Assembly: GCF_036365525.1 (NCBI RefSeq)
Contig: NC_090379.1
Span: forward strand, 92,489,206-92,553,205
Length of the DNA: 64,000 nucleotides
Origin: Heterodontus francisci
Lineage: Eukaryota
Reading direction: 5' to 3'
Shown here: one piece after another, positions 1 to 51,454 of the stretch
Position numbering within the stretch: position 1 is the first letter of the stretch
How the letters are laid out: each line of letters starts with the position of its first letter
Made by a program: the position numbers and the translations under genes
Notes under the pieces: model-generated
Database searches by the model: none
Told to the model about the DNA's origin: nothing
Seen by the model: only the letters and a program-made list of their open reading frames with translations

Positions 1-314
1 AAACTGTTCCCTCTTGTGAAAGGATCGAGAATGAGAGGGCATAGAATTAAAGAAATTAGCAAGTGAAGCAAAAGCGACTTGAGGAAAAACTTTTTCACGC
101 AGCGAATGGTTCAGGTCTGGAATGCACTGCCTGAGTGTAGTACAGGCAGGTTCAATCGTGGCATTCAAAAGGGAATTATACTGTTATCTGAAAAGGGAGA
201 ATGTGCAGGGTTACAGGAGAAGGTGGTGGAATGGCACTCGGTGAATTGCTCATTCAGGGTACTGGTGCAGACATGATCAGCTGAATGGCCTCCTGTGTTG
301 TAATGGTTCTGTGA
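1..314 (+). mobile_element. CR1-type LINE 3' end fragment
   Basis: RKNFFTQRMVQVWNALP, the typical CR1 ORF2 C-terminus, followed by a gaatggcctcct 3' UTR. Confidence 0.85.
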
Positions 315-900
315 ACTCAACACTATCCAGGCCAAAGCAGCCCGCTTGATTGGCACCCTATCCATCACCTTAAGCATTCACTCACCACAGTTGCACCCTG
401 AATGCATTGTGTACGATCTACAAGATGTACTACAGCAACTCACCAAGGCCACTTTAGCAGTACCTTCCAAATCATTGACCTCTACCGCCTAGAAGAACAA
501 AGGCATCAGGCACATGGGAACACCACTGCCTTCAAGTTCCCCTCCAAATCACACACCATCCTGACTTGGAAATATATTGCCGTTCCTCATCGTTGCTGGG
601 TTAAGATCCTGGAACTCCCTCGCTAGCAGAACTGTGGGTGTACCTACATTACATGGACTGCCATGGTTCAAGAAGGCAGCTGCTCACCACCTTCTCAAAG
701 AATGAGCAAATAAATATTATAATAGCAAAATTTGCAGATGCTGGAAATCTGAAATAAAAACAAGAAATGCTGGAAATACTCAGCAGGTCTGGCCGCATCT
801 GTGGAGAGAGAAGCAGAGTTAACGTTTCAGGTCAGTGACCCTTCATCAGAAATAAATACTGGTGTGTGTGATCCCATGAACAAATTATAAAACAAAAAAA
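315..900 (+). mobile_element. 3' end of the second LINE family (same as 17615-20740), interrupted by the element at 717-849
   Basis: Colinear with 20295-20740 (atccag..aaagcagcc.gcttgattggca, ccttctc, atcccatgaa + A-rich tail). Confidence 0.8.
717..849 (-). mobile_element. Short Penelope-like element (family A) with a hammerhead-like core
   Basis: Minus strand begins ctgatgaagggtcactgacctgaaacgttaac; flanked by the direct repeat aaataaata (708-716, 850-858); homologous to 5297-5407, 21941-22165 and 31531-31705. Confidence 0.75.
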
Positions 901-1651
901 AATCACCATTTTTATGCAGTGTATATGTTTAAATTCTGTAAACATGTAGAAAAGATAAATCTAGGTTAAAGGCAAGTCATCGCAGTAAAACCAGAAGGAT
1001 ACATTCTACCTGGTGAAGGGTGAATTTGGATAATGGTAAACTATGTAGCTCCCACTATTCAAACTCCAGCGAAGCTCCTGAACCCATAATAAGCATCGCA
1101 AAATCTTGATGCATGCTAACCGTCACCTAAATTTTGTCAACTTGGCTAAGTTGGGAAGACTCAGAGAGTATATTTACTCTATCACTCAAACAGAAGAATT
1201 AATAATTGGTTTAGAGACATAGGCATGATGATACTCTTCCACATGTGCCAGACACCCAGCTGATCAAAATCAAAAATTAAATTGGGTGTGAACTGACCCA
1301 ATGCAGGAAGGGTGGTAAAGTTGAACATATAGATAACTCAAGCCACAGACCAGAAGGTGTTTGACTTTCTCTTGTATACAAAAAGCTGCACAATTTTTAT
1401 GTTTTCAATTATTTAAGGTTTTAGAGCAAGGTGCAGTACTTTGTTTTAGTGTTTACTGCAGCTACTATGTCTTAAATGCAAAAAAAAACAATTTCAGTGT
1501 TGTGTGTCACAGTTGATCCTGAGATCTTTGTAGCCCTCTAGTTCCACTGTATTGGCAAAGCAGTGCTCTTGTATAATACTTTTAACAGCAACTTTTTAGA
1601 ACAAACTTCTTGTTTTGAAGGCTAATTTCTTTTCTCTTTTCCTTTTTGTAG

Positions 1652-1688
1652 GAAATGATGAGCAAGTGATTGTTCATGATGTTGCAAG
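1652..1688 (+). CDS. DCAF5: DCAF5 internal exon (likely exon 3), 37 nt: (G)NDEQVIVHDVA(S)
   Basis: Polypyrimidine tract + AG (1650-1651), GTAAG donor at 1689. Translation matches the DCAF5 segment GNDEQVILHDVES as I recall it; phase is compatible with the next exon. Absent from the ORF track. Confidence 0.93.
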
Positions 1689-1902
1689 GTAAGAAAAAAC
1701 ACCAATCTAATAGCATTATAGTATTTGTAAAAGGGCACAGAAGTTCATAGAAGTACACACAAGAGATAACAACATGTAATTCACAGGAGTTATTAAAATA
1801 ACAATAGGGTGATGTGAGCAGTATTGAGTGCACTATAATTCTAGTTTCATGTTTGCATTGTGCAGTTTAGAGAAGTCTAAGTCTGGTGAAAATAGGGACA
1901 TG

Positions 1903-1938
1903 TTGTCAAAGCTTTTCGTCTTGCACTCATCAAGACAA
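1903..1938 (-). ncRNA. Minimal type-I hammerhead ribozyme-like motif (C3U variant)
   Basis: UUGUC-UUGAUGA-GU gcaag AC-GAA-AAGCUU-U-GACAA: 5-bp stem I, core, short stem II, palindromic stem III. Confidence 0.62.
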
Positions 1939-2126
1939 TTGCAAGAATAACCAATGTATGGGAAAACAACAACTTGTACTGCGTGAGAAGAGCGTGCTGA
2001 TTGGTTGACAAGTGAACTCTGATTCTCCATGGCCTCATCCAGTCAGAGTTCACTTGTCAACCAATCAGCACTCTCTTCTCATGCAGTATAGGTTGTTGTC
2101 TTCCCTTACATTGGTTATGCTTGCGA

Positions 2127-2162
2127 TTGTCCAGATGAGTGCAAGACGAAAAGCTTTGACAA
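2127..2162 (+). ncRNA. Minimal type-I hammerhead ribozyme-like motif (U4A variant)
   Basis: UUGUC-CAGAUGA-GU gcaag AC-GAA-AAGCUU-U-GACAA; the consensus with the other arm restores CUGAUGA. Confidence 0.62.
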
Positions 2163-3122
2163 CATGTCCCTATTTTCAGCAATACTCAAGACTGATTGGC
2201 ATGGTGATAGCATTTTGAACTTCACATCCAATGTTACCTGTGAAAGTATTCAACAATTTTTGTGTGTACTAAATTGTACTGATTTAATAATGGTCATTCT
2301 GGCTAGTTCCATGTTAATCTGAATTTGGATGGGTGTGACTCTAATTTGGATGTGGTCTTGATGTGTCCATGGTGAGAACTGGGGTGATGGATTTGTGGGA
2401 CTCACTACAGGGTAAGATGCAGATAGTAGAGTTCTTGATGGGTTGCATGGTGGATCCTGGGAGGCGACCTATGCCTCAAGATGGAAACAGCATGGGCTGC
2501 CATGGGAACAAGGGTAGGGTGGTTGATCTGGAGGCAAAAATAGGCAGTGGTGGTGACAGACTCAGTGTGATTTGACATTCAACTCTGGGTCCGACAGGAG
2601 TTTGTGTACCATTTCAGCACTGTCATCCATCTAGAACTGTCCAGAGAGCTTTGAATGTTCTTTTGGAAATTCAAATTGTACTCAGTGGTCAATACTACAG
2701 CAGTTATTTGTAATCTGCATGGTAGACATAAGGCTGTTTGTGTTCCTTCTGCCTTGAATGCTTTTGGGTTTATTGCATGGTTGCTTTTAACATTTGAGAA
2801 AAGAATGAATCATTGAAATGATCACTTTCTCAGCAGCAGAAACTGGAAGTTATATGAAGTGTTATAGAAAAGGGCTGTGTGCAGTTTGGGAGGTAAGGAA
2901 GAAGCAAATACTATTATTTATGCTGTGGCAAATGGATTGCACAAGTTATCTGTTTTATATACATATTTTTAGTTGCAACCATTTCACAATATTGCTCTGA
3001 CACTCCTTCCTTCCTGTTGTGATGAGTTTAGTTTTTTTGTGTTTCTCCCATCTTGCCATGGTTAGCAGCTTGGCTGAAATTGTTAATGATGCAAATTTAG
3101 GTACATTTTCATTTTTTTCCAG

Positions 3123-3259
3123 CACTGAAATAGTGAGTGTTTTTCCCCATGATGATGCTGTATATGGCCTGTCCGTGAGTCCTGTGAATGACAATGTCTT
3201 TGCCAGTTCCTCAGATGATGGCAGAGTTCTTATCTGGGATATACGGGACTCGCATGGAG
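3123..3259 (+). CDS. DCAF5: DCAF5 exon (likely 4), 137 nt: (S)TEIVSVFPHDDAVYGLSVSPVNDNVFASSSDDGRVLIWDIRDSHG
   Basis: ttttttccAG acceptor, GTGAGT donor at 3260; WD40 repeat ending in a WDxR (DWD) motif; overlaps ORF 3019..3270. Confidence 0.96.
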
Positions 3260-3804
3260 GTGAGTGTTAAGAAATGAGTCATACAAAATAAAACTCATGT
3301 GGCTCAAACAATGTACTAAGTCCCTCTGAACAAGATTATAACCTTCTGGTCACCACTCCTTGTTTGCCTACATAACTCGCTGCCCTTGTTTGTGTATGAA
3401 ACTTTGAGACATTTTAAAGAAGTGATGGAGTGATATTTTTCCATCCCTTAAGAGAATATGTATATGGTTTCAGTTTAATGAGTTTTAATCTTTATCTTGA
3501 GCTGACAAAGGCTGTCTTTGAATATAGTACTCTGTACACTCTGTAGCCTTGACATACTTCACTGTGTGCATAAACAAGGCAGTGATTGTGACCCTTCCAA
3601 AAACCGGGAAAACTCTATTCCAAAATATACTGCGGTGTATTTCTAAATTGGCAATATTCTGCTTTGTTAACATATTGCAGAACACTGCTGATCCTCACTT
3701 TAAAGAGCATAAAAATTGGCTTTCATTTCTCCCACCTCCTCCAGATTTGTTTATTACAGAAATTGCACACTTGGGCTGCAAATTTGTAGTTGGACAGTTT
3801 TTGT

Positions 3805-4565
3805 AGGTGTGAATTTTTTGCTTCCTTTAGCCAATAGCATGACTGTTTTCTGAGGTAGCTCACAATGCAGTAACGGGGCTGTTTTTGGTGGGGGAGGTGG
3901 AGCTCCCAGTGCCAGGCCGAAAAAGTGAGGGGAGCCCTGCCTTGGCCATTTTGCGCTTCCCTGAGAGGTCCTCTGGTCTTTTAACATTAAGTTTCATGAG
4001 CCCGGATCCCTGTCCCTTTAAAGAGAAGGATCCCACCTCCAAGAACTGCAAGCCAATCAAAGGGCTGGCAGCTCATCAGTATCGGCAGCACCACCGGGTG
4101 CTGTGGCCATTGCTGGTACTACAGAGGTTTCCAACCCAGGCCCAGCGCTGGAACCCTAGACCTCAGGTCAGTGAGCTGGGGTTGCTGGGGCCAGTCTGGG
4201 TGGCCCTGGTGTGGGGGGTGGTTGTGCAGTCCAGGGGGAGATGATTCACTGCGGGGTTTCTCCATGAGCCACAGACTGCCCACCAAGGAGGGTCCCCCAA
4301 CCCCAAGTCCGCGTGGCGGAGACACCCCCTGCCGCCGGTACGATCCCAGCAGTGGTGGTAAGAAGCCTTTAATTAGCCGTTAATAGGCCACTTATGGGCC
4401 TGAATTGGCCTCTGGCTGGGAAGGCCATCATCAGCCTATCCCAGCCCTGGGAAAATCACGTGGCGATAGGGCGGCGACGGGATCTCTGCCTCACCCGCCA
4501 CACTTTGCGATTCTGTGGGCCACCCTGCCACCGACCCCACCTTGGGGGCCCATAAAATCCAACTC
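3805..4565. mobile_element. GC-rich non-autonomous DNA-transposon-like element (MITE)
   Basis: Sharp GC-rich island; ends aggtgtgaatttt ... aaaatccaactc resemble the termini of 49513-50322; no coherent ORF. Confidence 0.5.
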
Positions 4566-4759
4566 ACAGCCTCTACTCACTTTCTCATATGTATTCTACA
4601 CTCTCTGTACTCTATTTGCAAGCTGTTTCTGATTTAATAGATTGGACTAAGGTATGCTAGTGAAAGAAGATAACAAGCATTGAGGGAACACTTTCACCAT
4701 AAAATCCTTCCCAATCAAAATCCATTCTCCCCAGTCCCCAAACATTTCCTTCTACCAAA

Positions 4760-4970
4760 TATGTCTTTATGCTTTAGAATTCCCTCCCTAAACTTCTCAA
4801 TGTGTTTCATCATCTTTAAGACCCATCCCCCTTAGAATCCAGCTTATTGAACAAGCTTTAGGTCACCTCGCTTATTATCTCCTTTTTGGCTCAGCATCCA
4901 TTTATTTCTGACTATGCCTCTATGTAGAGCAGATCTACAAAAAGGAGGACTATCAAATGCAACAACTTGC
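4760..4970 (+). mobile_element. L2-type LINE 3' tail remnant
   Basis: gaattccctccctaaac...aacaagctttaggtcacc...tatcaaatgcaa, similar to the tails at 28400-28615 and 52515-52710. Confidence 0.6.
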
Positions 4971-5296
4971 GAAATAATGGCTAGTTAAAGGTGAGCACCA
5001 TTATTGGTGTTTAAACAACTCAGTCGACTGTGATGAGGAATACGTACACTATGTGTTGTGAATTACAACAGATTCCTGGATGATTAGTGCTACTCTGCAT
5101 TAGTGTCACAAAGACCTGAACTCGCCATCAACCTCCCCATGTGTAACCAGAAATTTCTGCATTTGTGCTGCAAATACAAATTAAACTTGCTGGAGAAAAT
5201 CAGGGCTGCTATTTAATGGTACAAAGACTTTGGTATTGAGATAATTTTTGTTTCCAATGGCCTTCCACTTCTAAACCAGTTGACAGTTAAATGACC

Positions 5297-5407
5297 TAAA
5301 ATACATAATAAATAAAAACAAAAAGTGCTGGAATATTCAGCAGATCTAGCAGCATCTGTGGAGAGAGAAGCAGAGTTAACATTTCATGTCAGTGACCTTT
5401 CATCAGA
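5297..5407 (-). mobile_element. Short Penelope-like element (family A), degenerate hammerhead core
   Basis: Minus strand tctgatgaaaggtcactgacatgaaatgttaac; perfect 14-bp flanking direct repeat acagttaaatgacc (5283-5296, 5408-5421). Confidence 0.78.
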
Positions 5408-6166
5408 ACAGTTAAATGACCATTGTTTTGCACATGCCACATGAAACACTCATTCAGGATGCAAGTTAAACTGCTATGTTAAATTTATTTCAACTTGGCA
5501 GGAATTAGCTATCTCTCCCCACCCCATACTGCCACCCTTTTCTCCCTCCCCCTCACCCCCCACCATTAACAGGGTCTTTAATTTCTAAATAACCAACAAT
5601 TAACCTGCTGATTTCACAAGTAATGCACGCTTTGAATTGATAGAAAATATCTAGCTTTCATGTGTCGGCAGCAGCTGCCAATAGTTCCTGAATTTTATGA
5701 ATTAAAAAGCAATAATAACCTAAACCCTGGGCAGTAGGCTGATTTATTCATCTGTTTGTGTCATGTTCCATAGGCAAAGCAACTTAGAACTACACATTTT
5801 TTAGCATTAAACTCAGCGATAGACTTGCTTAAATAGCATCCAAGCTGCCACTTCAGAGCTCTGCTGCCCATTTAAATCTTTTTGTTTACTTGGTTATTAA
5901 GGTGATCAATTCTTGGTACCAAATATGCCCCGTTTTCAATTTGCACTTCCAGCAATTTGCAACACAAAATTAATTGAAGCTCAAGCATGAGGGAAGAAAT
6001 GCAACCCATGGCACTCACTGAGATGCCATTCTCCAGCAAATTCTGGGCCATTAATATCATGTAACGGGTGGTCGTTGTTTTAAAATAACGGAATGAAACT
6101 TCACTTGTGACTATTGTTTTTCTTGTCTGCAAGTTTTGACCTTCACATGCATTTCACTTGTTTCAG

Positions 6167-17614: not shown

Positions 17615-20600
17615 TCGCACAGTGGTTATGTTATTGGACCAGTAATCCAGAAGCTTGGACTAATAATTTGGAGACATGAGTTCAAATCCCACAATGGCAG
17701 TCTGGGAACTTGAATTTAGTTAATTTAGTAAATCTGGAATTAATAGATAGTGTTTGTAATGGTGATCATGAAGCCTTTGGATTGTCGCAAGCACTTAGTT
17801 GCATCAAACAGCTACAATAAGATACACGAAGAATAAATCCAGATGAACCACACGACATCCCCTAAGTATCTGATTTGGATATGACAAATACAACCCTGCA
17901 AAGTCCTCCTCACTACCCTCTGGGAATTGTGCCAAAGAAAAGCTGTCCCACAGGCATGCTGTGCCCATCGGGGCTCAGATAGTAGTGATGTTACTGAGCC
18001 ACTCTTGGTGATGAATGAACATTGAAGTCAGTTACCCAGAGTAAATTCCTAGTATGGGTATAATTCTGTGAGATGATGATTGGCCGAGGTCCCAGACTCC
18101 TTCATTACCATCATGTTCTACCGGCAAGACAGGCTCATCAGAGGTGGCAGCACAATGATATACAGACTGGAGGGAGTGGCCCTGGGAGTCTTCAACATTG
18201 AGTCCTGACACCATAAAGTCTATTGTCTTCAGGCCAAACGTAAGCAAGGAAACCTCCTGTTGATACCACTTGCTGCCCTCCCTCAGCTAATGAATCACTA
18301 CTCCTCCATGTTGAACACCACTTGGAAAAAGTATGAGGGTAGAAAGAGCACAGAATGTACTCTGGTGAGGAACTTCAATATACATTACCTTGAGTGGCTT
18401 GGCCGTATCACTGCTGATCAAGTCTTGAAGGGCCTAGCTGCCAGATTGGGCATGCGGCAGATGGTGAAAGAACTAAAACAATGGGAAATACTTGACTACT
18501 TCCTCGCCAATCTACCTGTTCTAGATGCATTTGTCCATGACATCGTTCTTGTAGAGACAAAGTCCCATCTTGCCACTGAGGACATTCTCCATTGTGTGGT
18601 ATGTTGCCACCACCGTACTCGATGGGATAGTTTCAGAATAGACATAGTAGCTCAGAACTGGGCTCCATGAGGGACGTGGGCCATCAGCAGCAAGAGAATT
18701 GTATCCTACCACAATCTAATCTCGTGGCCTGGCATATCCCTCACTTTACCATTACCGTCAAACCAGACAAGGAACCCTAATCCAATGAGGAATGTAGAAG
18801 AGCATGTCAGGACCAGGCAAACCTAAAAATAATGTACCAACCTGGTGAAGATACAAGACTGAACTACAACATGCATACTAAAGAGCAGAAGCAACATGCT
18901 GTGGACAGAGCAAAGCAATCCCACAACCAACGGCTCTGCAGCCCTGCCACAACCAGTCGTGAATGGTGGTGGATAATTAAAGAACTAACAGGAGGAGGCT
19001 CCTTGAACATTCCCATTCTAAATGTTGGCAGAGCCCAGCACATGAATGCAAAGGCCAAGGCTGAAGCATTTGCAACCATCTTCAGCCAGATGTACCAAGT
19101 GGGCGGCCCATCTCTGCCTTGGCCTGAGTATCCCACTATCACAGATGGTCAATCTTGAGCCAATTTAACTCACTCCATGTGATATCAAGAAACAGCTGAG
19201 CACACTGGATACAGAAAAGGCTATGGGCCCTGATAACAGCTCGACTGTAGTGCTGAAGATCTGTGCTTCAGAACTAGTTGTGCTTCTAGCCAAGCTGTTC
19301 CAGTACAGCTACGACACTGGCATCTACCCAATAATGTGGAAAATTGTCTAGCTATGTCCAGTCCACAAAAAGTGCAACAAATCCAATCCAGCCGATTACC
19401 ATCCCATTAGTCTACTCTTGATCATCAGCAAATTAATGGAAGATGCCCTTGAAGATGTTATCAGGTGGCACTTACTCAGTAATAACCTGTTCACTGATGC
19501 TAGTTTGGATTGTGCTAGGACAACTCGGCTCCAGACCTCATTGCGGCCTTGGTCCAAGCATGGACAAAAGCTGAATTCCAGCGGTGAGGCGAGAGTGGCT
19601 GCCCTTGACATCAAGGCAACATTTTGAGCAAGTGTGGCATCAAGGAGCCTTAATAAAATTGAAGTCAGTTTGAAGCAGAGGAAAACTGTTCACTGGCTGG
19701 AGTCATACCTAGCACAAAGGAAGATGGTGTGGTTGTTGGAGGCCAATCATCTCAGCCCCAGGACACCACTGCAGGAGTTCCTCGGGGCAGTGAGCTACGC
19801 CAAACCATCTTCAGTTGCTTCATCAATGACCTTCCCTCCGTCATAAGGTCAGAAGTCAGGATTTTCACTAACGATTGCACAGTGTTCAGTTCCATTCACA
19901 ACTCTGCAGATAATGAAGCAGTCTGTGTCCACACGCAGCAAAGTCTGGACAATGTTCAGGCTTGGGCTGATAAGTGGCCAGTAGCATTCACGCCACACAA
20001 GTGTCAAGCAATGGCAATCTCCAACAAGAGAGAGTCTAACCACCTCCCCTTGACATTCAACAGCACTACTATTGCTGAATCCCCCACCATCAACATCCTG
20101 GAGATCACCATTGAGCACAAATATAACTGGACCAACCATGTAAATACTGTAGTTACAAGATCAGAGGCTGGGTATTCTACGGTAATTCACCTCCTGACTC
20201 CCCAAAGCCTGTCAACCATCTACAAGGCACAAGTCAGGAATGTGATGGATTACTCCCCACTGGCCTGAATGAGTGCAGCTCCAACAATGCTCATGAAACT
20301 TGACATCATCCAGAACAAAACAGCCTGCTTGATTGGCATCCATCCACCACATTAAACATTCACACCAGCGGTGCACTGTGGCTGCAGTGAGTGCCATCTA
20401 CAAGATGCACCGAGCAAGGCTTGTTCAACAGCACCTTTCAAACTCGTGATGTCTACCGCCTGGAAGAACAAGGCAGTAGACACGTGGGAACAGCACGACC
20501 TGTAAGATCCCTCCAAGTCACACGCCATCTCAACTTGGAACTATATCGTCATTCCTTCATTGTTGCTGGGTTATAATCCTGGAACTCCCTACCTAACAGC

Positions 20601-20975: not shown

Positions 20976-21940
20976 TACTACGCATGTTCAAGTGCTAGCT
21001 GTAAGATTCAAGTGGTCTAATTTGTTCACTGCAATCTAGACAATTACTGTATCATATGTAGTTTTAGTTTAAATGCATTATAGCACTTTCTTCTGTATAT
21101 TTTTAATTGTTGTGGCTACAAGTGGTGCTGGACTTAATTGTAGAAATGCTTTATTTTGCTTGTTGTACTCGGAAGGTCTTGTGTGTTAGGGGCCTAATGA
21201 CTAGGAGATGAGAACTTTTGGCTTCGGGCAGTTCAGACCAGGTCTTCTCTGTTGAAGGCTGAGAATTCATTTGGAGGTTTGTTGGAATTTTCCCCAGGGA
21301 TTTCTTGGGGACCAGATCAGAAGGGGAGATATTGGATGACTGTTCAGTTTATTAGCTGAAGTGCTTCAAGATGCATGTTTCTAAGGGAGAAGTGGGAGTT
21401 TGTAAGTGCTTTGAGTTATTTTTGAGTTATTCTTGCAGTCTTCCTTGAGTTGATCTTGTTAAAACTATGGAGCCATCTGACTTTCACCCTACTGTGCAAC
21501 CGCACCAGTGAGCCAAGTGCATCCATTTCTGTAGAACATGCTGTCAAGGAAGTGAAGTTGGCTGGGCAAGGGAGTTCTGACAAATGTTCAGCTGGATCTC
21601 CCCTTGCAGATTTTCATCGAAGTTTACAGGGTGGCTAAGGATCTGGGCATTTTTTTGTTGGCATTGGATGGAAATGTTTTTACAGGGCAACTTGACATAA
21701 TTGTATTATTGCCATGAGTAAAACTAACCAAAATTAAACCTGTTCAATTTCCTATTCTGGTTCCCCATTCACAATCCCACACCACACACGATACCAGACT
21801 CCGTGTTCGCCAACTAAGACTGGAAATTTATCGCGACAGCTCTTGTGGGATACTTATGGCACATCGTGTATACTAATTGATGTGTTCATTACTTTTAACA
21901 TGTCTTCTCATGTTCTATAATAAGCTTTACATCCTCAGGG

Positions 21941-22165
21941 ATAAAAACAAGAAATGCTGGAATCACTCAGCAGGTCTGGCAGCATCTGTGAAAAGAGAAG
22001 CAGAGTTAACGTTTCGGGTCAGTGACCCTTCTTTGGAACCGAAGAAGGGTCACTGACCCGAAACGTTAACTCTGCTTCTCTTTTCACAGATGCTGCCAGA
22101 CCTGCTGAGTGATTCTAGCATTTCTTGTTTTTATTTCAGATTTCCAGCATCCGCAGTATTTTGCT
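21941..22165. mobile_element. Palindromic Penelope-like element (family A): 93-bp arms + 31-nt tail, 15-bp TSD
   Basis: 21941-22033 vs 22042-22134 are reverse complements with one mismatch; TSD tttacatcctcaggg at 21926-21940 and 22166-22180; centre carries ccgaagaagggtcactgacccgaaacgttaac. Confidence 0.9.
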
Positions 22166-23014
22166 TTTACATCCTCAGGGGTTCACCAATAACTAACCTA
22201 GTGCATATCCTCTTGTAGGTTAAGATTATTTTCTAATTTTGAATTCTCTATACAGAATAGCAGGTACATTGAAAAATTAGGGAATTTGAATGTAACTGAG
22301 GAAATGTCGTAATTAGAGAAAAAGATGTATTGCATCCAGAAATCTTTGTGATTGATGTTGAATTTTGTTTCATAGCAGACATGAATTAGTGATTACCTTT
22401 CTATTCCTAATTGTTTTACGTTAGGATTCTTGTCTTTTAAAGAGGTTTTGGATGATGTCAAAGCTAATACTTGGGGGAGGGGGGTGCTGTGTGTTGCTTG
22501 GGCAGTGAAGGTAGAAGAATTGAGAGATTTATGAGTTTGGCATGTGGAGCAAAATACTGAAGTAAGGCAGCGAGGAAGCTTCAGCGGTACCACACTGAAC
22601 ACCTTTGATTTAAATCCAGAGTGAAAGAGTAGACTTGACTGGTATTTTAACTGTATTTTCTTTAATTGTGTTTTATTATCTGTTTGCCAGTGTGCTATAT
22701 TTCTGAATTTGAGGATAATGTGACTACTTACCCTATCAGATGAACTTCTGTTTAATCTCTTGTACAAATCTGCAATCAATTAGTTGTGGTATAAAAATCA
22801 CGATTGCTCAACAAACATAGTGTTCACATGTCTTAATCGGGATTGATTTTTCTATAGAGACATTGGTTGCTTGTTTGAAGCAGATAGGTTTGTAGTGCAT
22901 CTCTGCATAACATAACATAAACACATGGCAGAGGTAAATACTCTAATAATCAAAATTTCTGCAGGTGAGTAGTTTACTAGGATATGTTTTGTAACCCCTG
23001 TGTTCTTCTTGTAG

Positions 23015-24034: not shown

Positions 24035-26700
24035 CGTAACATGATAATGGTTTTAAAAATTATGATTTTTAAAAGTTTAAGATGGAGTCCAGAAGGTCAG
24101 GGACCTCGCATCCACTCTGCTGAAGGACAAGACAGATCAAAGACTTTTTTTGAAAAAAAGAGAGACTGCAGGGGTAACACCTGAAGAACAATAGGCTTTG
24201 CCCTTCCAGACTTTCAGTTCGTAAAACAAGGAGTCAGTGATTCTGAAGATGCAAATATACCAAGCAGCTGTTAACATCCGGGAACAATGGAAAGCCCAGA
24301 CCCTGTGAAACCAGACTTCTGGATTTTGCGTATTTGAACAGGACAATAAACTATTGTCTTATGAGTCCAAATAAATTTAACAGATTTTCCAAAGGCAGAC
24401 AGGCTGTAATAAGGGAACCCACTGGTTGCAGCCTGAGGACAGGCTGTAAGGATGACAACCAGCAGTTGCAGCCTCAAGAGAGAGAGAGGAGACATCTACT
24501 CTCAGGAGCTTAATCCAGCAAAAGGATGTGAAGAATTGAACCAGTTTTCAAAGTTGAAGCTTGTGGAGAAGTAGAAGGCCAGCAGGGTCACCAAGAATCA
24601 CCTTATTCACAGATGAACAGGTGGAAAAGGCTCAGAGAAATGAGCGAAGAGGACGTTGATTTTTGAAAAGGTCTGGGAGATCCAACCCATTGCAACAGGG
24701 AGGAGTTTGGGACTTTTAACCGGAAAGATTTCACCATCAAAGATGACTGTCTAACATATAAGTGTGGTGTGAGGTTTTAAAGCATCTTAATAAGTGCAAA
24801 AAAAAACCTTTCCTTGAAAAAAAAAGAGTGTTTCAAAAAGAAGAGCCAAGAAATTTGCAGTGGACAGAGAGAATCTTTGATTACGTGAATAGGAAGTGAC
24901 GGGAATTTTGAGGATGAATCCGATTTAACTCTTGGTTTTGATTTGGCAAGGAATATTTGTTTAGTGCCTAAGTTCAGTGAAGAAGGAGTTGAAATGTACT
25001 TCGTGCCCTTTGAAAATTTACTATGAAGTTGCAGTGGTCAAAGGAAAGTTGGACAATTTTATTGCAAAGTGTGCTAGCGGGAAAAGCATTAGAGGTATGT
25101 TCAACACTTTCAGAAGAACAGTCAAGTGATTACAAAGTGTTTCAAACTGCAGTTCTCAAATCTTATGAGCTGGTACCAGAGGCTTACATGTGAAAATTCA
25201 GGAATAAAAATCCGGGTCAGACATTTATGGAATTTGCTAGAGAGAAGGAAATGATATTTGATTGTTGGTATCAGTCCATGAAGATTGAACAAGACTTTGA
25301 AAACCTTAGGGAAGTAATCCTAATGGGGGAATTTAAAAATAGTATCCTTCAGGAATAAGGTCCCATCTGGAAGAACATAAAGTTGGTAAAATAAATGCTG
25401 CAAAAATGGCAGATGATTATGAATTGACCCATAAAAGCAGCAGTTACAGGTTCCCATTTGGAAACTTTGAAAGGAGCTGGAAAGAAAGGGAGTGGATAAT
25501 GAGCAGAGATTCAGTTTTAGTGAGAGAATATAGGCAACCCTCAGAGTGGTTTAAAAAAAAAATAGTCAAGAGACTAGGGTTGAGTTAAAAGGACCAACGT
25601 GTTATTTTTAGAAGAAAAGAGGGTATAAAAAATCAGAATGCTGGAAGTTAAAGGACAAACCAGTAGCTCTAGTAGAGTTACCAAAAGCTTGTCCTGAAAA
25701 GAATGCCCCATTAGGTAATGCTGTTGACAAATCAGTGGCTTTGGCGGTTTTGGCTAGTGAACAGAAGTGTTCTCCCTTGTGTGCTAACAAATTAAGTCAG
25801 GTCCCTGAAGGGTATAGAAGTTTTGTGCTCGGGTACGGTGTCCCCATATTTGTCAGATTAAGCAGGCAAGCTAATTGTGCTGCTTAGAGGGACAACTCAG
25901 TCGTTAATGGTAGCAAAGGACATGGATCTTCCGCCCGATAGCGCTATAAATGCAAAAGTCATGATGCGGGGCATTGAGGAGTGACATTTATCCGTTCCAT
26001 TGCATAAGGTTAATTTGTAATGTGATTTAATTGTTGGTCCAGTAACAGTGGAGATTGTCCCGGATTTACATTTGTTGCTCGGGAATGACTTAGCTGGGGA
26101 TAAGATTTTTTATGGAAAAGCCAGTTGAGGTTTCTGAAACTGAAGTTTTGCAGGAGGAATTTCCTGGAATATTCCCAGATTGTGCAGTGACAAGATCCCA
26201 GGTTGATGAGATTAAGCAAGATGAGAAGCATTCAGTTGTTGTGGAGGACAATTCGGGTGTTTGGTTGGCGGAGACCTTTTTTCAAGGATTTGGATAGGGA
26301 CGTTGGTGAAAATGTTTCCAAGGCTAGCGATGACGAATTGTTCAGCAGATCGTCTTTGATTGAGGCCCAACAGACAGACTCTGACTTAAGTTTGTCTCAA
26401 ATGGCGTGTTCTGAGGCAGAAGCTGAAAAGGTCCCCGAATACTATTATATTAAGAATGACATGCTAATGAGAAAGTGGAGGCCTCTCCAGAGGCCCACTG
26501 GTGAGGATTGGGCTGTAGTTCATCAGGTGGTTGTTCCCCTGGGGTACTGTTGTGAAATTTTGAGAATTGCCCATGAGATCCCAGTGGCAGGTCATGTGGG
26601 TATTTGAAAGACTCAGGCCAGGATAAGACAGCATTTTTATTGGTTAGGCCTGCATAAGTATGTGGTTGAATTTTGCAGAACTTGCCATACATACCCCAGG
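24035..26700 (+). mobile_element. Decayed Gypsy LTR retrotransposon, Gmr1-like (gag - protease - integrase Zn finger); 5' boundary approximate
   Basis: gag LVPKFSEEGVEMYF, WTILLQSVLAGKA, VLKSYELVPEAY; protease-end LLGNDLAG; CAVTRSQ; HHCC motif AHEIPVAGHVGI*KT..RIRQHFYW...FCRTCH. Confidence 0.85.
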
Positions 26701-26711
26701 GGAACAACAGC

Positions 26712-27193
26712 CAGTGTACTCTGTTCTGGATGGCGTTGAGCTTCTTGAGTGTTGTTGGAGCCGCACTCATCCAGGCAAGTGGAGAGTATTCCATCACACT
26801 CCTGACTTGTGCCTTGCAGATGGTGGACAGGCTTTGGGAGTCAGGAGGTGAGTTACTCGCCGCAGAAGTCCCAGTCTCTGACCCACTCTTGTAGTCATAG
26901 TATTTATATGGCTGCTCGAGTTCAGTTTCTGGCCAATGGTAGTCCCCCAGTATGTTGATAGTGGGGGATTCAATGATGGTAATGCCATTGAATGTAAAAG
27001 GAGATTCTCTCTTGTTGGAGATGGTCTTTGTCCAGCACTTGTGTGGCGTGAATGTTACTTGCCACTTATCAGCCCAAGCCTGAATGTTGTTCAGGTCTTG
27101 CTGCATTTCTACGGCTGCTTCAGTATCTGAGGAATTGCAAATGGTACTGAACATAGTACAATTATCAGCGAACATCCCCACTTCTGACCTTAT
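26712..27193 (-). mobile_element. RT fragment of the second LINE family
   Basis: IRSEVGMFADNCT, WADKWQVTFTPHKC, QVRSVMEYSPLAW; homologous to 19840-20310. Confidence 0.88.
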
Positions 27194-27199
27194 GTCGTC

Positions 27200-28615
27200 A
27201 CCTCCCAAATCCATGTCCATCTTTCCCTCCAATCAGGTTTCTGGTTTGCCACAGTAGTGAAGAGACCCTTATCAAAGTTACAAATTGCATTCTATGTGAC
27301 TCTGATCATGGTAAATTGTCTCTTGACCTATCTGTAACCTTTGACGCAGTTGACCACACCACCATCCTCCATTGACCCAATTCCAATTAAACTTGACCAC
27401 TCAACTTCCCTTCCTAGCTCCCCCCGCCACCGTCCCCCCCCCCCCCCCCCCCCCACCATTAGCTGGTTTGTTAATGATTCCCTTTCATTCATTGTCCAAC
27501 TGCATGGAACTGCTGTTGCCTGGTTCCATCATTGTGATCTATTGAATTGTAACCAGATAATCACCTGCTATGACTTTTCTCTACCCACTCCTGCATCGTT
27601 ACCTCTGAAGTTCCACAAGGATCTATCCTTGGCTCCCTCTTATTTCTCATCTACGTGTTGCCCCTTGACAATATCATCTGAAAACATATCAGGTTCCATG
27701 TGTACGTTGACAACACTCAGCTATATCTCACTACCATCTTTCTGTCCCTTCTGTTGTCTCTAATTTGTCAAACTGCTTGTCTGACATTCAATATTGGATG
27801 TGCAGAAATTTCTTCCAACTAAATATTTGGAAGACTGAGGCTGTTAGCTTTAGCCCCTGCCATAAACTCCATTCCCTGACCACTGTTTCCATCCCTGGCA
27901 ACTATCTGAAGCTAATCAAGATCATTCACACCTTGGTGTTGTGTTTGACCCAGATGTGGACCTCCAACCACGCATCTACTCCCATCACCAAAGATTGCGT
28001 ACTTCCATCTCCATGACGTCTCCCAACTCCAACCCTGCCCCAGCTCATCTGCTGCTGAAAGCCTTAGCCGGATCTTTCTTACCTCTAGACGTGACTATTC
28101 CGATGATCTCTTGGTCGGCCTCCCATCATCCAGCCCATGTAAATATCTGCTTACCCAGAACTCTGTTGCCCACATCTTAACTCGCACCAAGTCTTGTTCA
28201 TCAATCACTCCTGTGCTTGTGGTTCAATAATGTCTCAATTTTAAAATCCTCATTCTTTTTTTCAACTCCCTCCATACCTGACCCCTCCATATCTAATCTC
28301 CTCCAGCCCTAAAAGCCTTCCAGATCAATTGCTTCCTACAATTCTCACCACTTGTCCATCTCACTATTGGCCTCTGTGCCTTCAGCTACCTTGGCCCTAA
28401 GCTTAACAATTCCCTCTCTAACCCTTTCCACCTCTTTACTTCTCCTCCTTTAAGATGCTCCACAAAACCGACCTCTTTGACCAACATTTTGTTCAGCTGC
28501 CTTGGTATCTCCTTCTGTAGTTTGGTATCAAAAATATTTTTTAATTGTTTTCTTTGTTATACATCTTGGAATGTTTTACTACATTAAAAGTGCTATATAA
28601 ATGCAAGTCGTCGTT
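27200..28615 (+). mobile_element. L2-clade LINE, 3' part
   Basis: LDLSVTFDAVDH, CLSDIQYWMCRNFFQLNIWKTE; tail tgctatataaatgcaagtcgtcgttg. Confidence 0.85.
27434..27454. repeat. Poly-C run (21 nt)
   Basis: Directly visible. Confidence 0.9.
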
Positions 28616-31530: not shown

Positions 31531-31705
31531 CAAAAACAGAAAGTGTTTGAAATACTCAGCAGGCCAAGCAGTAATTGTGGAGAGAAAAAGCAGAGTTAAC
31601 ATTTGAACAAATTTTCTCTCCACAGATGCTGCCTGATCTGCTGAGTACTTCCAACATATTCTCTTTTTGTTTCAGATTTACAGCATCTGCAGTATTTGGC
31701 TTTTG
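31531..31705. mobile_element. Older palindromic family A element with its centre deleted
   Basis: Arms actcagcagg...tgtggagagaaaa / ttttctctccaca...ctgctgagta plus the same tail; degenerate TSD tacctca.ttgga (31516, 31706). Confidence 0.75.
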
Positions 31706-46599: not shown

Positions 46600-49015
46600 T
46601 GGTCACTGAATGGCTGCAGAACACCCTGAGGGGGGAGGGTGAACAGCCAGCAGTCATCATCCACATTAGTATCAACGACATGGTTAGGAAGAGGGATGTG
46701 GTCCTGCGGAAAGAGTTTAGTGAGCTAGGTAAGAAATGAGCAAGCAGAACCTCAAAAGCAGTAATCTCCAGATAATACGATAAAACAGGATCTGGCCGAA
46801 GTGGACTGGGAGCAGCTACTTGTAGGAAAGTCTACATCAGACCAGTGGGAGTCATTCAAAGAGGAAATAGTGAGAGTTCAGGGCCAACGTGTTCCCGTTA
46901 AGGACCAACAAGTCCAGGGAACCCTGGATGTTTCGGGATATAGAGGATTGGATAAGTAAAAAAGAGGAGGCTTATGGCAGATTCAGAGCACTGAAAACAG
47001 CGGAGGCACTAGAGGAGTATAGAAAGTGTAGGGGGGTACTTAAAAAAAAAGTAATTAGGAGAGCGAAGAGGGGACATGAAAAAACACTGGCGGGCACGAT
47101 AAAAGAAAATCCCAAGGTGTTTTATAAATATATTAAGAGCAAGAAGATGACCAGGGAAAGAGTAGGACCCATTAGGAACCAAAGTGGCAATCTGAGTGTG
47201 GAGCCGGAGCACATAGGTAAGGTTTTAAATGATTACTTTTCATCTGTGTTCACTATGGAGAAGGACGATGTAGGTGTAGCGATCAGGGAGGGGGTTTGTG
47301 ATATACTTGAACATATTAGCATTGAAACGAAGGAAATATTAGCTGTTTTAGCAGGCTTAAAAGTAGATAAATCCCCAGGCCCAGATGAGATGTTTCCCAG
47401 GCTGTTATGTGAGGCAAGGGAGGAGATAGCAGGGGCTCTGACACAAATTTCCAAATCCTCTCTGGCCACAGGAGAGGTACCAGAGGACTGGAGGACAGCG
47501 AATGTGGTACTATTATTCAAGAAGGGTAGCAGGGATAAACCAGTGAGTCTAACATCAGTGGTAAGGAAACTATTGGAAAAAATTCTGAGACAGGATTAAT
47601 CTCCACTTGGAGAGGCAGGGATTAAACAGGGATAGTCAGCATGGCTTTGTCAGGGAGAAATCATGTCTAACAAACCTGATTGAATTTTCCGAGGAGGTGA
47701 CCAGATGTGTAGATGAGGGTAAAGCAGTTGATGTAGTCTACATGGACTTCAGTAAGGCTTTTGATAAGGTTCCGCATGGGAGATCGGTTAAGAAGGTAAG
47801 AGCCCATGGGATCCAGGGCAATTTGGCAAATTGGAGCCAAAATTGGCTTAGTGACAGGAGGCAGAGGGTGATGGTGGAGGATTGTTTATGCGAGTGGAAG
47901 CCCGTGACCAGTAGTGTACCGCAGGGATCGGTGCTGGGACCCTTGCTGTTTGTAGTGCACATTAATGATTTAGCATGAATATAGGAGGTATGATCAGTAA
48001 GTTCGCAGATGACACGAAAATTGGTGGTGTCGTAAATAGTGAGGAGGAAAGCCTTATATTACAGGATAATATAGATGGGCTGGTAAGATGAGCAGAGCAG
48101 TGGCAAATGGAATTTCATCCTGAAAAGTGTGAGGTGATGCATTTTGGGAGGACTAACAAGGTAAGGGAATATACAATGGATGGTAGAACCCTCGGAAGTA
48201 CAGAGGGTCAGAGGGATCTTGCTGTACTTGCCCATAGATCACTGAAGGCAGCAGCACAGGTAGATAAGGTGGTTAGGAAGGCATATGGGATACTTGCCTT
48301 TATTAGCCGAGGCATAGAATATAAGAGCAGGGAGGTTAAGATGGAGCTGTACAAAAGACTAGTTAGGCCACAGCTGGAGTACTGATACAGTTCTGGGCAC
48401 CACACTATAGAAAGGATGTGATTGCACTGGAGAGGGTGCAGAGGAGATTCACCAGGATGTTGCCTGGGCTAGAGCATTTCAGCTATGCAGAGGGACTGGA
48501 AAGGCTAAGGTTACGTGTCCCTTAGAACAGAGAAGGCTGAGGGGGGACCTGATTGAGGTATACAAAATTAGGAGGGGCGTTGATGGGTTAGATAGGAAGA
48601 ACCTTTTTCTCTTTGCGGAGGGGTCAATAACCGCGGGCATAGATTTAAGGTGAAGGGCAGGAGGTTTAGAGGGGATTTGAGGGAAAAGTTTTTTCACCCA
48701 GAAGGTGGTTGGAACCTGGGACACATTGCCTGAAGGCGTGGTAGAGGCAGGAACCCTCACAACATTTAAGAAGTGTTTAGATGAGCACTTGAAACACCAT
48801 AGCATACAAGGCTACCGGCCAAGTGCTGGAAAATGGGATTAGAATAGATAGGTGCTTGATGGCTGGCACAGACATGGTGGGCCAAAGGGCCTGTTTCTGT
48901 GCTGTATAACTCTATGACTCTACTTCCAGTGCCATGCACAAATGAGTATAGAAATAGGAGGATAGTGCAGATGAATGTATGGCTGGAAAGATGGTGCAGG
49001 AGGGAGTGCTTTTAA
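46600..49015 (+). mobile_element. CR1 ORF1 (SGNH-esterase-like) fragment split by a younger CR1
   Basis: LRGEGEQPAVIIHISINDM...SRTSKAVIS (46600-46778) resumes as LPVPCTNEYRNRRIVQMNVWLERWCRRE (48923-49010). Confidence 0.75.
46779..48920 (+). mobile_element. Relatively young 5'-truncated CR1 (HER1-like) LINE
   Basis: Long ORF2 pieces 46889..47599, 47607..47978 and 48107..48385 (KSPGPD, MDFSKAFDKVPH, VPQGSVLGPLLF, FADDTK); tail ctgtataactctatgactc; 3' end shared with the HE1 SINE tails. Confidence 0.95.
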
Positions 49016-50670: not shown

Positions 50671-51454
50671 CTTTTTCTTTTGGGCCTCCTTATCTCGAGA
50701 GACAATGGATACGCGCCTGGAGGTGGTCAGTGGTTTGTGAAGCAGCGCCTGGAGTGGCTATAAAGGCCAATTCTGGAGTGACAGGCTCTTCCACAGGTGC
50801 TGCAGAGAAATTTGTTTGTTGGGGCTGTTGCACAGTTGGCTCTCCCCTTGCACCTCTGTCTTTTTTCCTGCCAACTACTAAGTCTCTTCGACTCGCCACA
50901 ATTTAGCCCTGTCTTTATGGCTGCCCGCCAGCTCTGGCGAATGCTGGCAACTGACTCCCACGACTTGTGATCAATGTCACACGATTTCATGTCGCGTTTG
51001 CAGACGTCTTTATAACGGAGACATGGACGGCCGGTGGGTCTGATAGCAGTGGCGAGCTCGCTGTACAATGTGTCTTTGGGGATCCTGCCATCTTCCATGC
51101 GGCTCACATGGCCAAGCCATCTCAAGCGCCGCTGACTCAGTAGTGTGTATAAGCTGGGGGTGTTGGCCGCTTCAAGGACTTCTGTGTTGGAGATATAGTC
51201 CTGCCACCTGATGCCAAGTATTCACCGAAGGCAGCGAAGATGGAATGAATTGAGACGTCGCTCTTGGCTGGCATACGTTGTCCAGGCCTCGCTGCCGTAG
51301 AGCAAGGTACTGAGGACACAGGCCTGATACACTCGGACTTTTGTGTTCCGTGTCAGTGCGCCATTTTCCCACACTCTCTTGGCCAGTCTGGACATAGCAG
51401 TGGAAGCCTTACCCATGCGCTTGTTGATTTCTGCATCTAGAGACAGGTTACTGT
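50671..51454 (-). mobile_element. Young RTE-clade (BovB-related) LINE, 5'-truncated
   Basis: KVRVYQACVLSTLLYGSEAW, RWLGHVSRMEDGRIPKDTLYSEL, CSTCGRACHSRIGLYSHSRRC; catt duplicated on both sides (50667-50670, 51455-51458). Confidence 0.92.

Follow-up and report, generated by a model that had tools for sequence, protein, structure and literature searches.

The palindrome and its hammerhead motifs

The window, i.e. the whole stretch of 64,000 nucleotides of Heterodontus francisci DNA that was analysed, contains a palindrome of 298 bases in an intron of 1434 nt (1689-3122). Its inverted arms (1884-2022 and 2043-2181) measure 139 nt each, are 92% complementary with 11 mismatches, and enclose a centre of 20 nt. 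A palindrome of 292 bp at 1887-2178 had been described in a first-pass annotation; it is the same object minus the last three pairs of the arms. The left arm starts 195 nt past the end of a 37-nt exon (1652..1688, + strand, AG/GT borders), in agreement with the earlier estimate of about 200 nt. This exon lies outside the element and belongs to a DCAF5-like WD40 host gene. The following exon (3123-3259) gives a match to human DCAF5 (8tl6_B residues 178-219, E 5.5e-22), an assignment to be read together with three repeat-rich WD40 entries that score above 8tl6_B by summed repeats.

As RNA, the palindrome folds into a hairpin with a computed energy of -239.7 kcal/mol, compared with -81.9 +/- 5.1 kcal/mol for shuffled sequences (z = -31). 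Weak Rfam miRNA matches at the palindrome were discarded, because they reflect the hairpin only. A very stable hairpin of 139 bp at a distance of 195 nt from a short exon might have been taken over by the host, either to tune splicing of the 37-nt exon or as a source of functional edited or small RNAs, and two stretches of the arms (1887-1931 and 1994-2022) are indeed free of arm-to-arm mismatches. However, none of the 11 hairpin mismatches is compensated and G-U and A-C mismatches stand at 4:2 (p = 0.69), so that the mismatch pattern gives no sign of selection on the hairpin. Moreover, both splice sites lie outside the hairpin, whose end is about 930 nt upstream of the acceptor, and a flank contig of run X6 that is listed only from 2238 onward tentatively hints at an empty site in organism C. 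A takeover by the host is therefore considered improbable. Long intronic duplexes are typical substrates of ADAR, and passive editing of the hairpin is therefore plausible.

Each arm harbors one hammerhead motif of 36 nt with a 5-bp stem I, a 2-bp stem II and the palindrome AAGCUU as helix III. The sense motif (2127..2162, + strand) is composed of stem I (2127-2131/2158-2162), the core CAGAUGA (2132-2138, with the change U4A), stem II (2139-2140/2146-2147) and GAA (2148-2150). Its palindromic helix III occupies 2151-2156, and the cut is predicted after 2157. The second motif (1903..1938, - strand) has the core UUGAUGA, in which C3U is present without a compensating G8A, and its leader lies at 1941-1945. 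Places, cores, the 5-bp stem I and AAGCUU are all as first annotated.

Both motifs were recovered by a descriptor search, for which the descriptor was composed after the motif was known. With one core mismatch allowed, they are the only ones of their kind in the window. When a stem I of at least 5 bp and a palindromic helix III of at least 6 nt were demanded, 30 of 30 shuffles gave 0 matches, and 2 matches were obtained in 30 shuffles when any palindromic helix III was accepted. A search with hammerhead models had been proposed as a check, and it was successful with the descriptor but not with the Rfam hammerhead, which gave no match at the gathering score in the whole window and none at E up to 10 in 1-6000.

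In the pre-mRNA hairpin the pair probability of stem I is below 1e-38, versus at least 0.998 for the arm pairs. Even for a single arm, stem I is absent from the nested folding (p = 0.000) of a program that models neither pseudoknots nor a dimer. Local pieces of 46 nt favour an alternative hairpin (-4.3 and -9.0 kcal/mol) over the hammerhead monomer (-1.2 and -1.8 kcal/mol), and the AAGCUU self-duplex was computed at -4.3 kcal/mol. The change U4A is harmful to the hammerhead. Position C3 is paired with G8, and this pair is described to covary only as U3-A8 (PMC3088659). Neither motif at the locus is predicted to cut, because the cores are mutated, the strands are opposite and the sense motif is buried in the hairpin. 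Any one transcript contains a single motif, the other being on the opposite strand, and a dimer in cis is therefore impossible. Thus, from the earlier proposal of a dimer formed via the palindromic helix III, the palindrome AAGCUU stands, but the two motifs of the locus cannot pair with each other in this way.

The family of the palindrome and its link to Penelope-like elements

Reads or contigs of four out of 24 listed sequencing runs were aligned to 2005-2420 at 80% likeness, with the numbers counting pieces and not copies. On 2019-2200 there were 1556 raw reads in X24, which has the same species label, and 6223, 4491 and 10197 contigs in X1, X5 and X6, which represent three organisms. The depth in the flank was almost nil compared with that on the arm. 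These numbers show that the family of the palindrome is very abundant. Within the 64-kb window no second copy of it was seen elsewhere, and no remnant of a Penelope-like element (PLE) ORF was found there.

Family reads run upstream past the 20-nt centre rather than folding back. At the junction (2005-2018) the depth is 0 in four of four runs, with no read or contig across, and the raw reads are the better witness at this place because hairpins break contigs. At the fold-back junction (2022..2043), the 20-nt centre corresponds to the family sequence minus about 5 nt, and loose read ends lie before 2032-2044. The fold-back was made at this insertion, and the palindrome is not a family-wide form. 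Long inverted arms and small size would also fit a miniature inverted-repeat DNA transposon, or a palindromic family amplifying as a unit with the hammerhead as an incidental feature. This reading is contradicted by the reads that pass the centre upstream and by the empty junction in all runs, and, as set out below, the sequence matches a Penelope pseudo-LTR (pLTR) and ORF start; we regard it as extremely improbable.

The right arm (2023..2190, + strand) is a direct, 5'-truncated pLTR copy without the optional tail, and the left arm (1887..2022, - strand) is by arm comparison a shorter, inverted copy, whose outer boundary is uncertain between 1874 and 1887. Many family copies stop at 2184-2190, as does the right arm (loose ends behind 2184, 2189 and 2190), and others share a run-on of about 25 nt.

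The family reads also reveal the state of the motif outside this locus. Position 2133 is T in 610 of 648 reads, i.e. the family core is CUGAUGA, as had been deduced for the ancestor, and the core changes therefore struck each arm separately. Cleavage had been expected after AAGCUU-U; the place (after 2157) holds as a prediction, but the base at the cut site is C in the majority of the family (486 of 757 reads). Further family changes, among the positions listed, occur at 2147/2148 (184/756 and 118/758), at 2158 (162/752) and at 2124/2125 (76 and 43 of 406). They lie on CpG sites, as would be expected of changes that arise by neutral decay.

In organisms B and C (X5 and X6), the outermost stem I pair (2127, 2162) differs in about one third to one half of the depth, which suggests a subfamily in which this pair is changed. 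The flank is covered by a single contig of X6 (organism C, 89% alike), listed from 2238 onward only, and its start is a tentative hint of an empty site. The 47 nt between the element end and the start of this alignment (2191-2237) could be lineage-specific sequence or a piece of the insertion event.

For relatives of the family we turned to metagenome contigs, where the exact 20-nt family motif had no match. A relaxed pattern, in which core, stem II and helix III were fixed and loop II was free, gave 121 metagenome loci, found in 10 of the collection's 64 parts. One sister family accounts for about 115 of them and was therefore counted as one lineage; locus L031 represents a second. At locus L069 the sister family is inserted head to head, with arms of 460 nt (515-974/1220-1679) around a 245-nt centre that contains a GIY-YIG ORF end (PF01541, 22.8 bits at a cut-off of 22.6). 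A pLTR directly behind a GIY-YIG ORF end was seen in the two sister lineages (L069/L061 and L031) but not directly in the window's family, the ORF stop being separated from the core by 194 nt in L061 and 134 nt in L031. No PLE relatives were found in viral contigs and plasmids.

A search with the L069 fragment returned 62 proteins, several of them of about 840 aa with an RT domain; the RT was recognised by Pfam in P0027, P0042 and P0009. Full-length homologues begin with MFLFSVLLKFCTTKKLF (P0027) and MNYLLIAIFKFCTTNQLF (P0028), and P0063, P0064 and P0076 begin alike. In the right arm, 6 nt past the predicted cut, an ATG appears to open the first nine codons of the RT-endonuclease ORF, MSLFSAILK (2164..2190, + strand). 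When compared without gaps with 213 fetched proteins, this peptide matches best at residue 1 of P0027, with a score of 28 that is weak alone, and 2164-2190 also matches the N-termini of P0063 and P0042. The family run-on behind 2190 translates by eye to FCTTKRLF, and the same tail is present in the sister family. The protein searches revealed neither a protein starting exactly with MSLFSAILK nor an intact ORF belonging to the family of the window. A search with frame 2021, which is not the ORF frame, gave no match. An ORF start at the ATG within the core (2135), as in the anole element PAc, was considered and dropped, since the relatives match the ATG at 2164.

The window arm can be aligned to the sister pLTR over about 170 nt with a score of 81, compared with 34 +/- 5 for shuffled sequence, about 20 of the matches being forced by the search pattern. 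Among 115 copies of the sister family, conservation drops in two steps behind helix III, at a distance of about 25-35 nt and of about 60 nt. As in an endonuclease-bearing (EN+) PLE, the copies of the family are dispersed, high in number and 5'-truncated, and have two alternative 3' ends that differ by the tail. By eye, P0027 and P0028, which are relatives and not members of the window's family, are without the cysteine-rich linker between RT and endonuclease. Absence of this linker is given as a criterion of the Penelope/Poseidon group (PMC3846280), and the relatives therefore point to this group.

Promoter-like elements occupy 2039..2092 (+ strand) of the right arm. They comprise CCAAT boxes at 2039-2043 (in the family form) and 2061-2065 and a TATA-like box at 2087-2092, 45 nt before the core, and might act as a promoter. 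At 2091 in the TATA-like box, 500 of 536 family reads have A instead of G. TATA and Inr elements have been described in pLTRs (PMC3846280, PMC8557442). We take the palindrome to be a PLE pLTR, because the sister family has the same architecture behind a GIY-YIG ORF end and because the ATG at 2164 matches the start of an RT and GIY-YIG protein. The link to a Penelope ORF, named as a check in the first-pass annotation, was thereby found, and from the proposed fold-back Penelope derivative the Penelope pLTR is retained, whereas the palindromic family is given up.

At 2057 (C in 697 of 773 family reads) and at 2169 (T in 629 of 676), both arms have the same base and depart from the family majority, which argues that they were copied from one template. 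At 2042, 419 of 434 family reads have A instead of G, and with the family base the junction would have a microhomology of 3 nt (AAT) that fits a snap-back of newly made DNA. Target-primed reverse transcription probably began near 2190, as copy ends like that of the right arm mark start sites of reverse transcription in the anole element (PMC11167929). It would have come to a halt after about 170 nt, whereupon the newly made strand would have snapped back at the microhomology and copied itself. The outcome would be a head-to-head pair, of which each arm presumably decayed by about 4% afterwards. PLE insertions are described in which an inverted, 5'-truncated pLTR sits beside a direct one, with a brief overlap between the two and, optionally, a tail of 30-40 bp (PMC3846280, PMC8557442), and opposite-strand hammerhead pairs 100-700 bp apart have been reported (PMC4209133).

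Alternatively, the palindrome might derive from two separate insertions, or it might have been produced later by inverted duplication or gene conversion. A search between 1830-1892 and 2176-2260 yielded no target-site duplication, and the outer ends of the arms differ by about 12 nt, as such an origin would allow. PLE copies without a target-site duplication have been reported (PMC3846280), and the shared rare bases exclude two random family members. Furthermore, the geometry equals that of the inverted pLTR known from the literature, including its short overlap (PMC3846280), and it recurs in L069 and at 21941-22134 of the window. More than one event is thus very improbable, and a single fold-back during insertion is preferred.

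Other elements are present in the window. At 21926-22180 lies a second, unrelated palindrome with hammerheads (arms 21941-22036/22039-22134, 98%). On one side only, it carries a tail of about 30 nt, and it is flanked by a perfect target-site duplication of 15 bp (21926-21940, 22166-22180); judged by these features it is a textbook inverted PLE insertion. A minimal hammerhead with a long helix II, an intact core and a truncated stem I (822-849, - strand) lies in a copy of the same other family, of which more copies are found at about 5311-5408 and 31532-31704. Open frames at 18209-20268, 26191-27232, 46874-47978 and 50727-51221 presumably encode fragments resembling LINE/LTR retrotransposon proteins.

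Predicted leader-loop II pairing in the family motif

In front of the sense motif, the leader CUUGC (2120..2124, + strand) is the exact reverse complement of loop II (GCAAG, 2141-2145), and a pseudoknot between the two is predicted. The complementarity is exact on both arms, with a chance of 0.9%. In the sister family leader and loop II read CUGAC/GUCAG, and in L031 CUGAC/GUUGG. In an alignment of five rows from three lineages, 25 of 25 cells of this helix are paired; two of its five pairs are changed on both sides and one on one side. Sliding partners were 31-46% paired versus 93% for the whole structure. Over this structure, four pairs changed on both sides were observed, a number reached in 146 of 500 shuffles by a control that ignores relatedness. 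The covariation of leader and loop II is nevertheless a real test, because the search pattern fixed neither of them; the palindromic helix III of the sister families was fixed by the pattern. In stem I, two of four counted pairs change on both sides, and by eye the fifth does so as well, with the L031 row aligned by a shift of 1 nt. Stem I covariation, which had been asked for earlier, is thus present.

Of the 109 metagenome matches that extend far enough upstream (the duplicate locus L070 being omitted), 105 allow pairing of leader and loop II, versus 0 of 14 GTDB and 1 of 42 viral chance matches. The latter two sets (14 and 42 matches to the relaxed pattern) include no stem I of at least 5 bp and served as chance controls. 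Against the pseudoknot counts that in X5 and X6 the depth drops sharply at 2103-2130, the region of the leader in their main subfamily, and that, as described above, stem I is missing from the nested folding of one arm and a competing hairpin is more stable.

The third lineage with a pseudoknotted motif, L031:434-458 (- strand), lies behind a GIY-YIG-type ORF end. Its leader pairs with loop II via two G-U pairs, its spacer is longer, and it has one extra base near the cut site. In L036, L032 and L033, self-inverted stretches are located near the motif.

Stem II has 2 bp and the extra nucleotide at 9/10.1 is absent in all three lineages. Although first labelled a minimal hammerhead, a motif with such a short stem II, no nucleotide between 9 and 10.1 and a predicted pairing of leader and loop II is not of the typical minimal type. 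The distance from TATA box to core is 45, 48 and 46 nt in the three lineages, and a transcript start would therefore fall just before the leader. The start codon trails the predicted cut by 6, 3 and 4 nt. In an intact element, the hammerhead would be the first structure of the mRNA. Its helix III would need a partner copy, via the AAGCUU palindrome, the leader-loop II pseudoknot would brace the 2-bp stem II, and the cut would fall just before the start codon. By analogy with braced hammerheads, the family motif might exceed the Penelope motifs known to date in its rate of cleavage. We predict that the family hammerhead is a variant with a covarying pseudoknot, which would be modestly new for Penelope elements. 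No printed description of a pseudoknotted PLE hammerhead was found in the literature text searched; figures, Lunse et al. 2017, Arkhipova et al. 2017 and the supplements of PMC3088659 lie outside that text and may show one.

The same complementarity could also have the opposite effect. If stem II is given up, the leader helix can grow to 6-7 bp, and it might serve as an off-switch in which pairing of 2119-2125 with 2140-2146 breaks stem II and keeps the ribozyme inactive until a partner RNA or the protein of the element refolds it. This would concern the family motif only and would leave the origin of the locus as it is. A 7-bp form can be drawn in all three lineages and reaches -7.9 kcal/mol for the left-arm sequence. 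In addition, copies end 30-60 nt past the cut site, where the template was therefore uncut, and the anole ribozyme cuts only with protein (PMC11167929). On the other side, stem I covaries too, which is compatible with the leader helix as a pseudoknot, and stems II of 1-2 bp braced by pseudoknots of up to 6 bp are described, with loss of rate on disruption (PMC3088659). We hold an off-switch to be on the unlikely side.

We consider it very probable that the palindrome is one dead insertion of the 3' end (pLTR) of an EN+ PLE, folded back about 170 nt in; in the intact family the motif would be dimer-dependent and pseudoknot-braced. It counts against this explanation that the hammerhead of the anole element is reported to cut only with protein and that insertion in vitro could proceed without its cleavage (PMC11167929). 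As a locus, the palindrome is ordinary insertion debris, and greater weight lies with the family motif. The tested metazoan Penelope hammerheads are reported to cut slowly or only with protein (PMC4209133, PMC11167929). A covarying tertiary contact that is kept across distant lineages argues for selection on the folded ribozyme. A fungal-virus hammerhead with a short helix II is reported to cut 7 nt before an ORF (PMC13725137). The family hammerhead occupies a comparable place, closely following the TATA box and preceding the start codon by 3-6 nt, and a role in translation therefore becomes testable. It is tempting to speculate that one Penelope branch, including this vertebrate and at least two distant lineages, uses a dimer-gated, pseudoknot-braced, fast ribozyme. 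Such a ribozyme would remove the capped first 40-45 nt of the mRNA and leave the start codon 3-6 nt from a 5'-OH end, whereby self-cleavage would be tied to translation of the RT. This far-reaching proposal is doubtful as a whole.

Comparison with known systems

The arrangement of the locus resembles inverted pLTR insertions of EN+ PLEs (Arkhipova et al. 2013, PMC3846280; Craig et al. 2021, PMC8557442), which are described as head-to-head pairs with the inverted copy about 20 nt shorter at the junction. Also shared are a TATA box and the first ORF codons within the pLTR, an optional tail, which in the family measures about 30 nt, and an ORF length of about 840 aa in the relatives. Here, in contrast, about 170 nt of the element are present, the arms are tailless, and no target-site duplication was found. 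Non-LTR retrozymes (PMC7229834; bioRxiv 10.64898/2026.07.22.740005) are also non-coding, PLE-derived and equipped with a type I hammerhead. They are described as head-to-tail tandems, whereas we observed a single dispersed head-to-head pair, with no other copy of its family in the window.

With the metazoan PLE hammerheads (Cervera and de la Pena 2014, PMC4209133), the family motif has in common the type I topology, the CUGAUGA/GAAA core, the G10.1-C11.1 pair, the 5-bp stem I and the occurrence in opposite-strand pairs. A palindromic helix III that needs a dimer is shared as well, and palindromes of 6 nt appear in Fig. S3 of that paper. The difference lies in stem II, which has 2 bp here, 7-8 bp in the Schistosoma families, and at the shortest 3 bp among the Fig. 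S3 rows examined. Both the long helix II and the extra nucleotide between 9 and 10.1 of the typical minimal PLE motif in that source are absent. PLE hammerheads are usually described without tertiary contacts (PMC6155905, PMC7761336), unlike the family motif with its covarying, predicted leader-loop II helix.

The family motif is in this respect closer to the pseudoknot-braced hammerheads (Perreault et al. 2011, PMC3088659), which combine a very short stem II with a Watson-Crick contact from the stem I side to the stem II side. According to that paper, stems II of 1-2 bp are common, and a pseudoknot of up to 6 bp between the two sides is needed for a high rate. A pseudoknot of this type is supported here by 5 bp with two pairs changed on both sides across three lineages. 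An example tested in the same source is, however, a metagenomic type II ribozyme, while in our case a predicted contact is joined to a dimer-type palindromic helix III in the pLTR of a retrotransposon. Finally, PAc, a Poseidon element of Anolis (Frangieh et al. 2024, PMC11167929), likewise has a hammerhead at the junction of pLTR and ORF and a tail defined by two 3'-end sites within the ORF start. The ORF of PAc is reported to begin inside the hammerhead before the cut, whereas in the family studied here the matching ATG follows 6 nt after the predicted cut.
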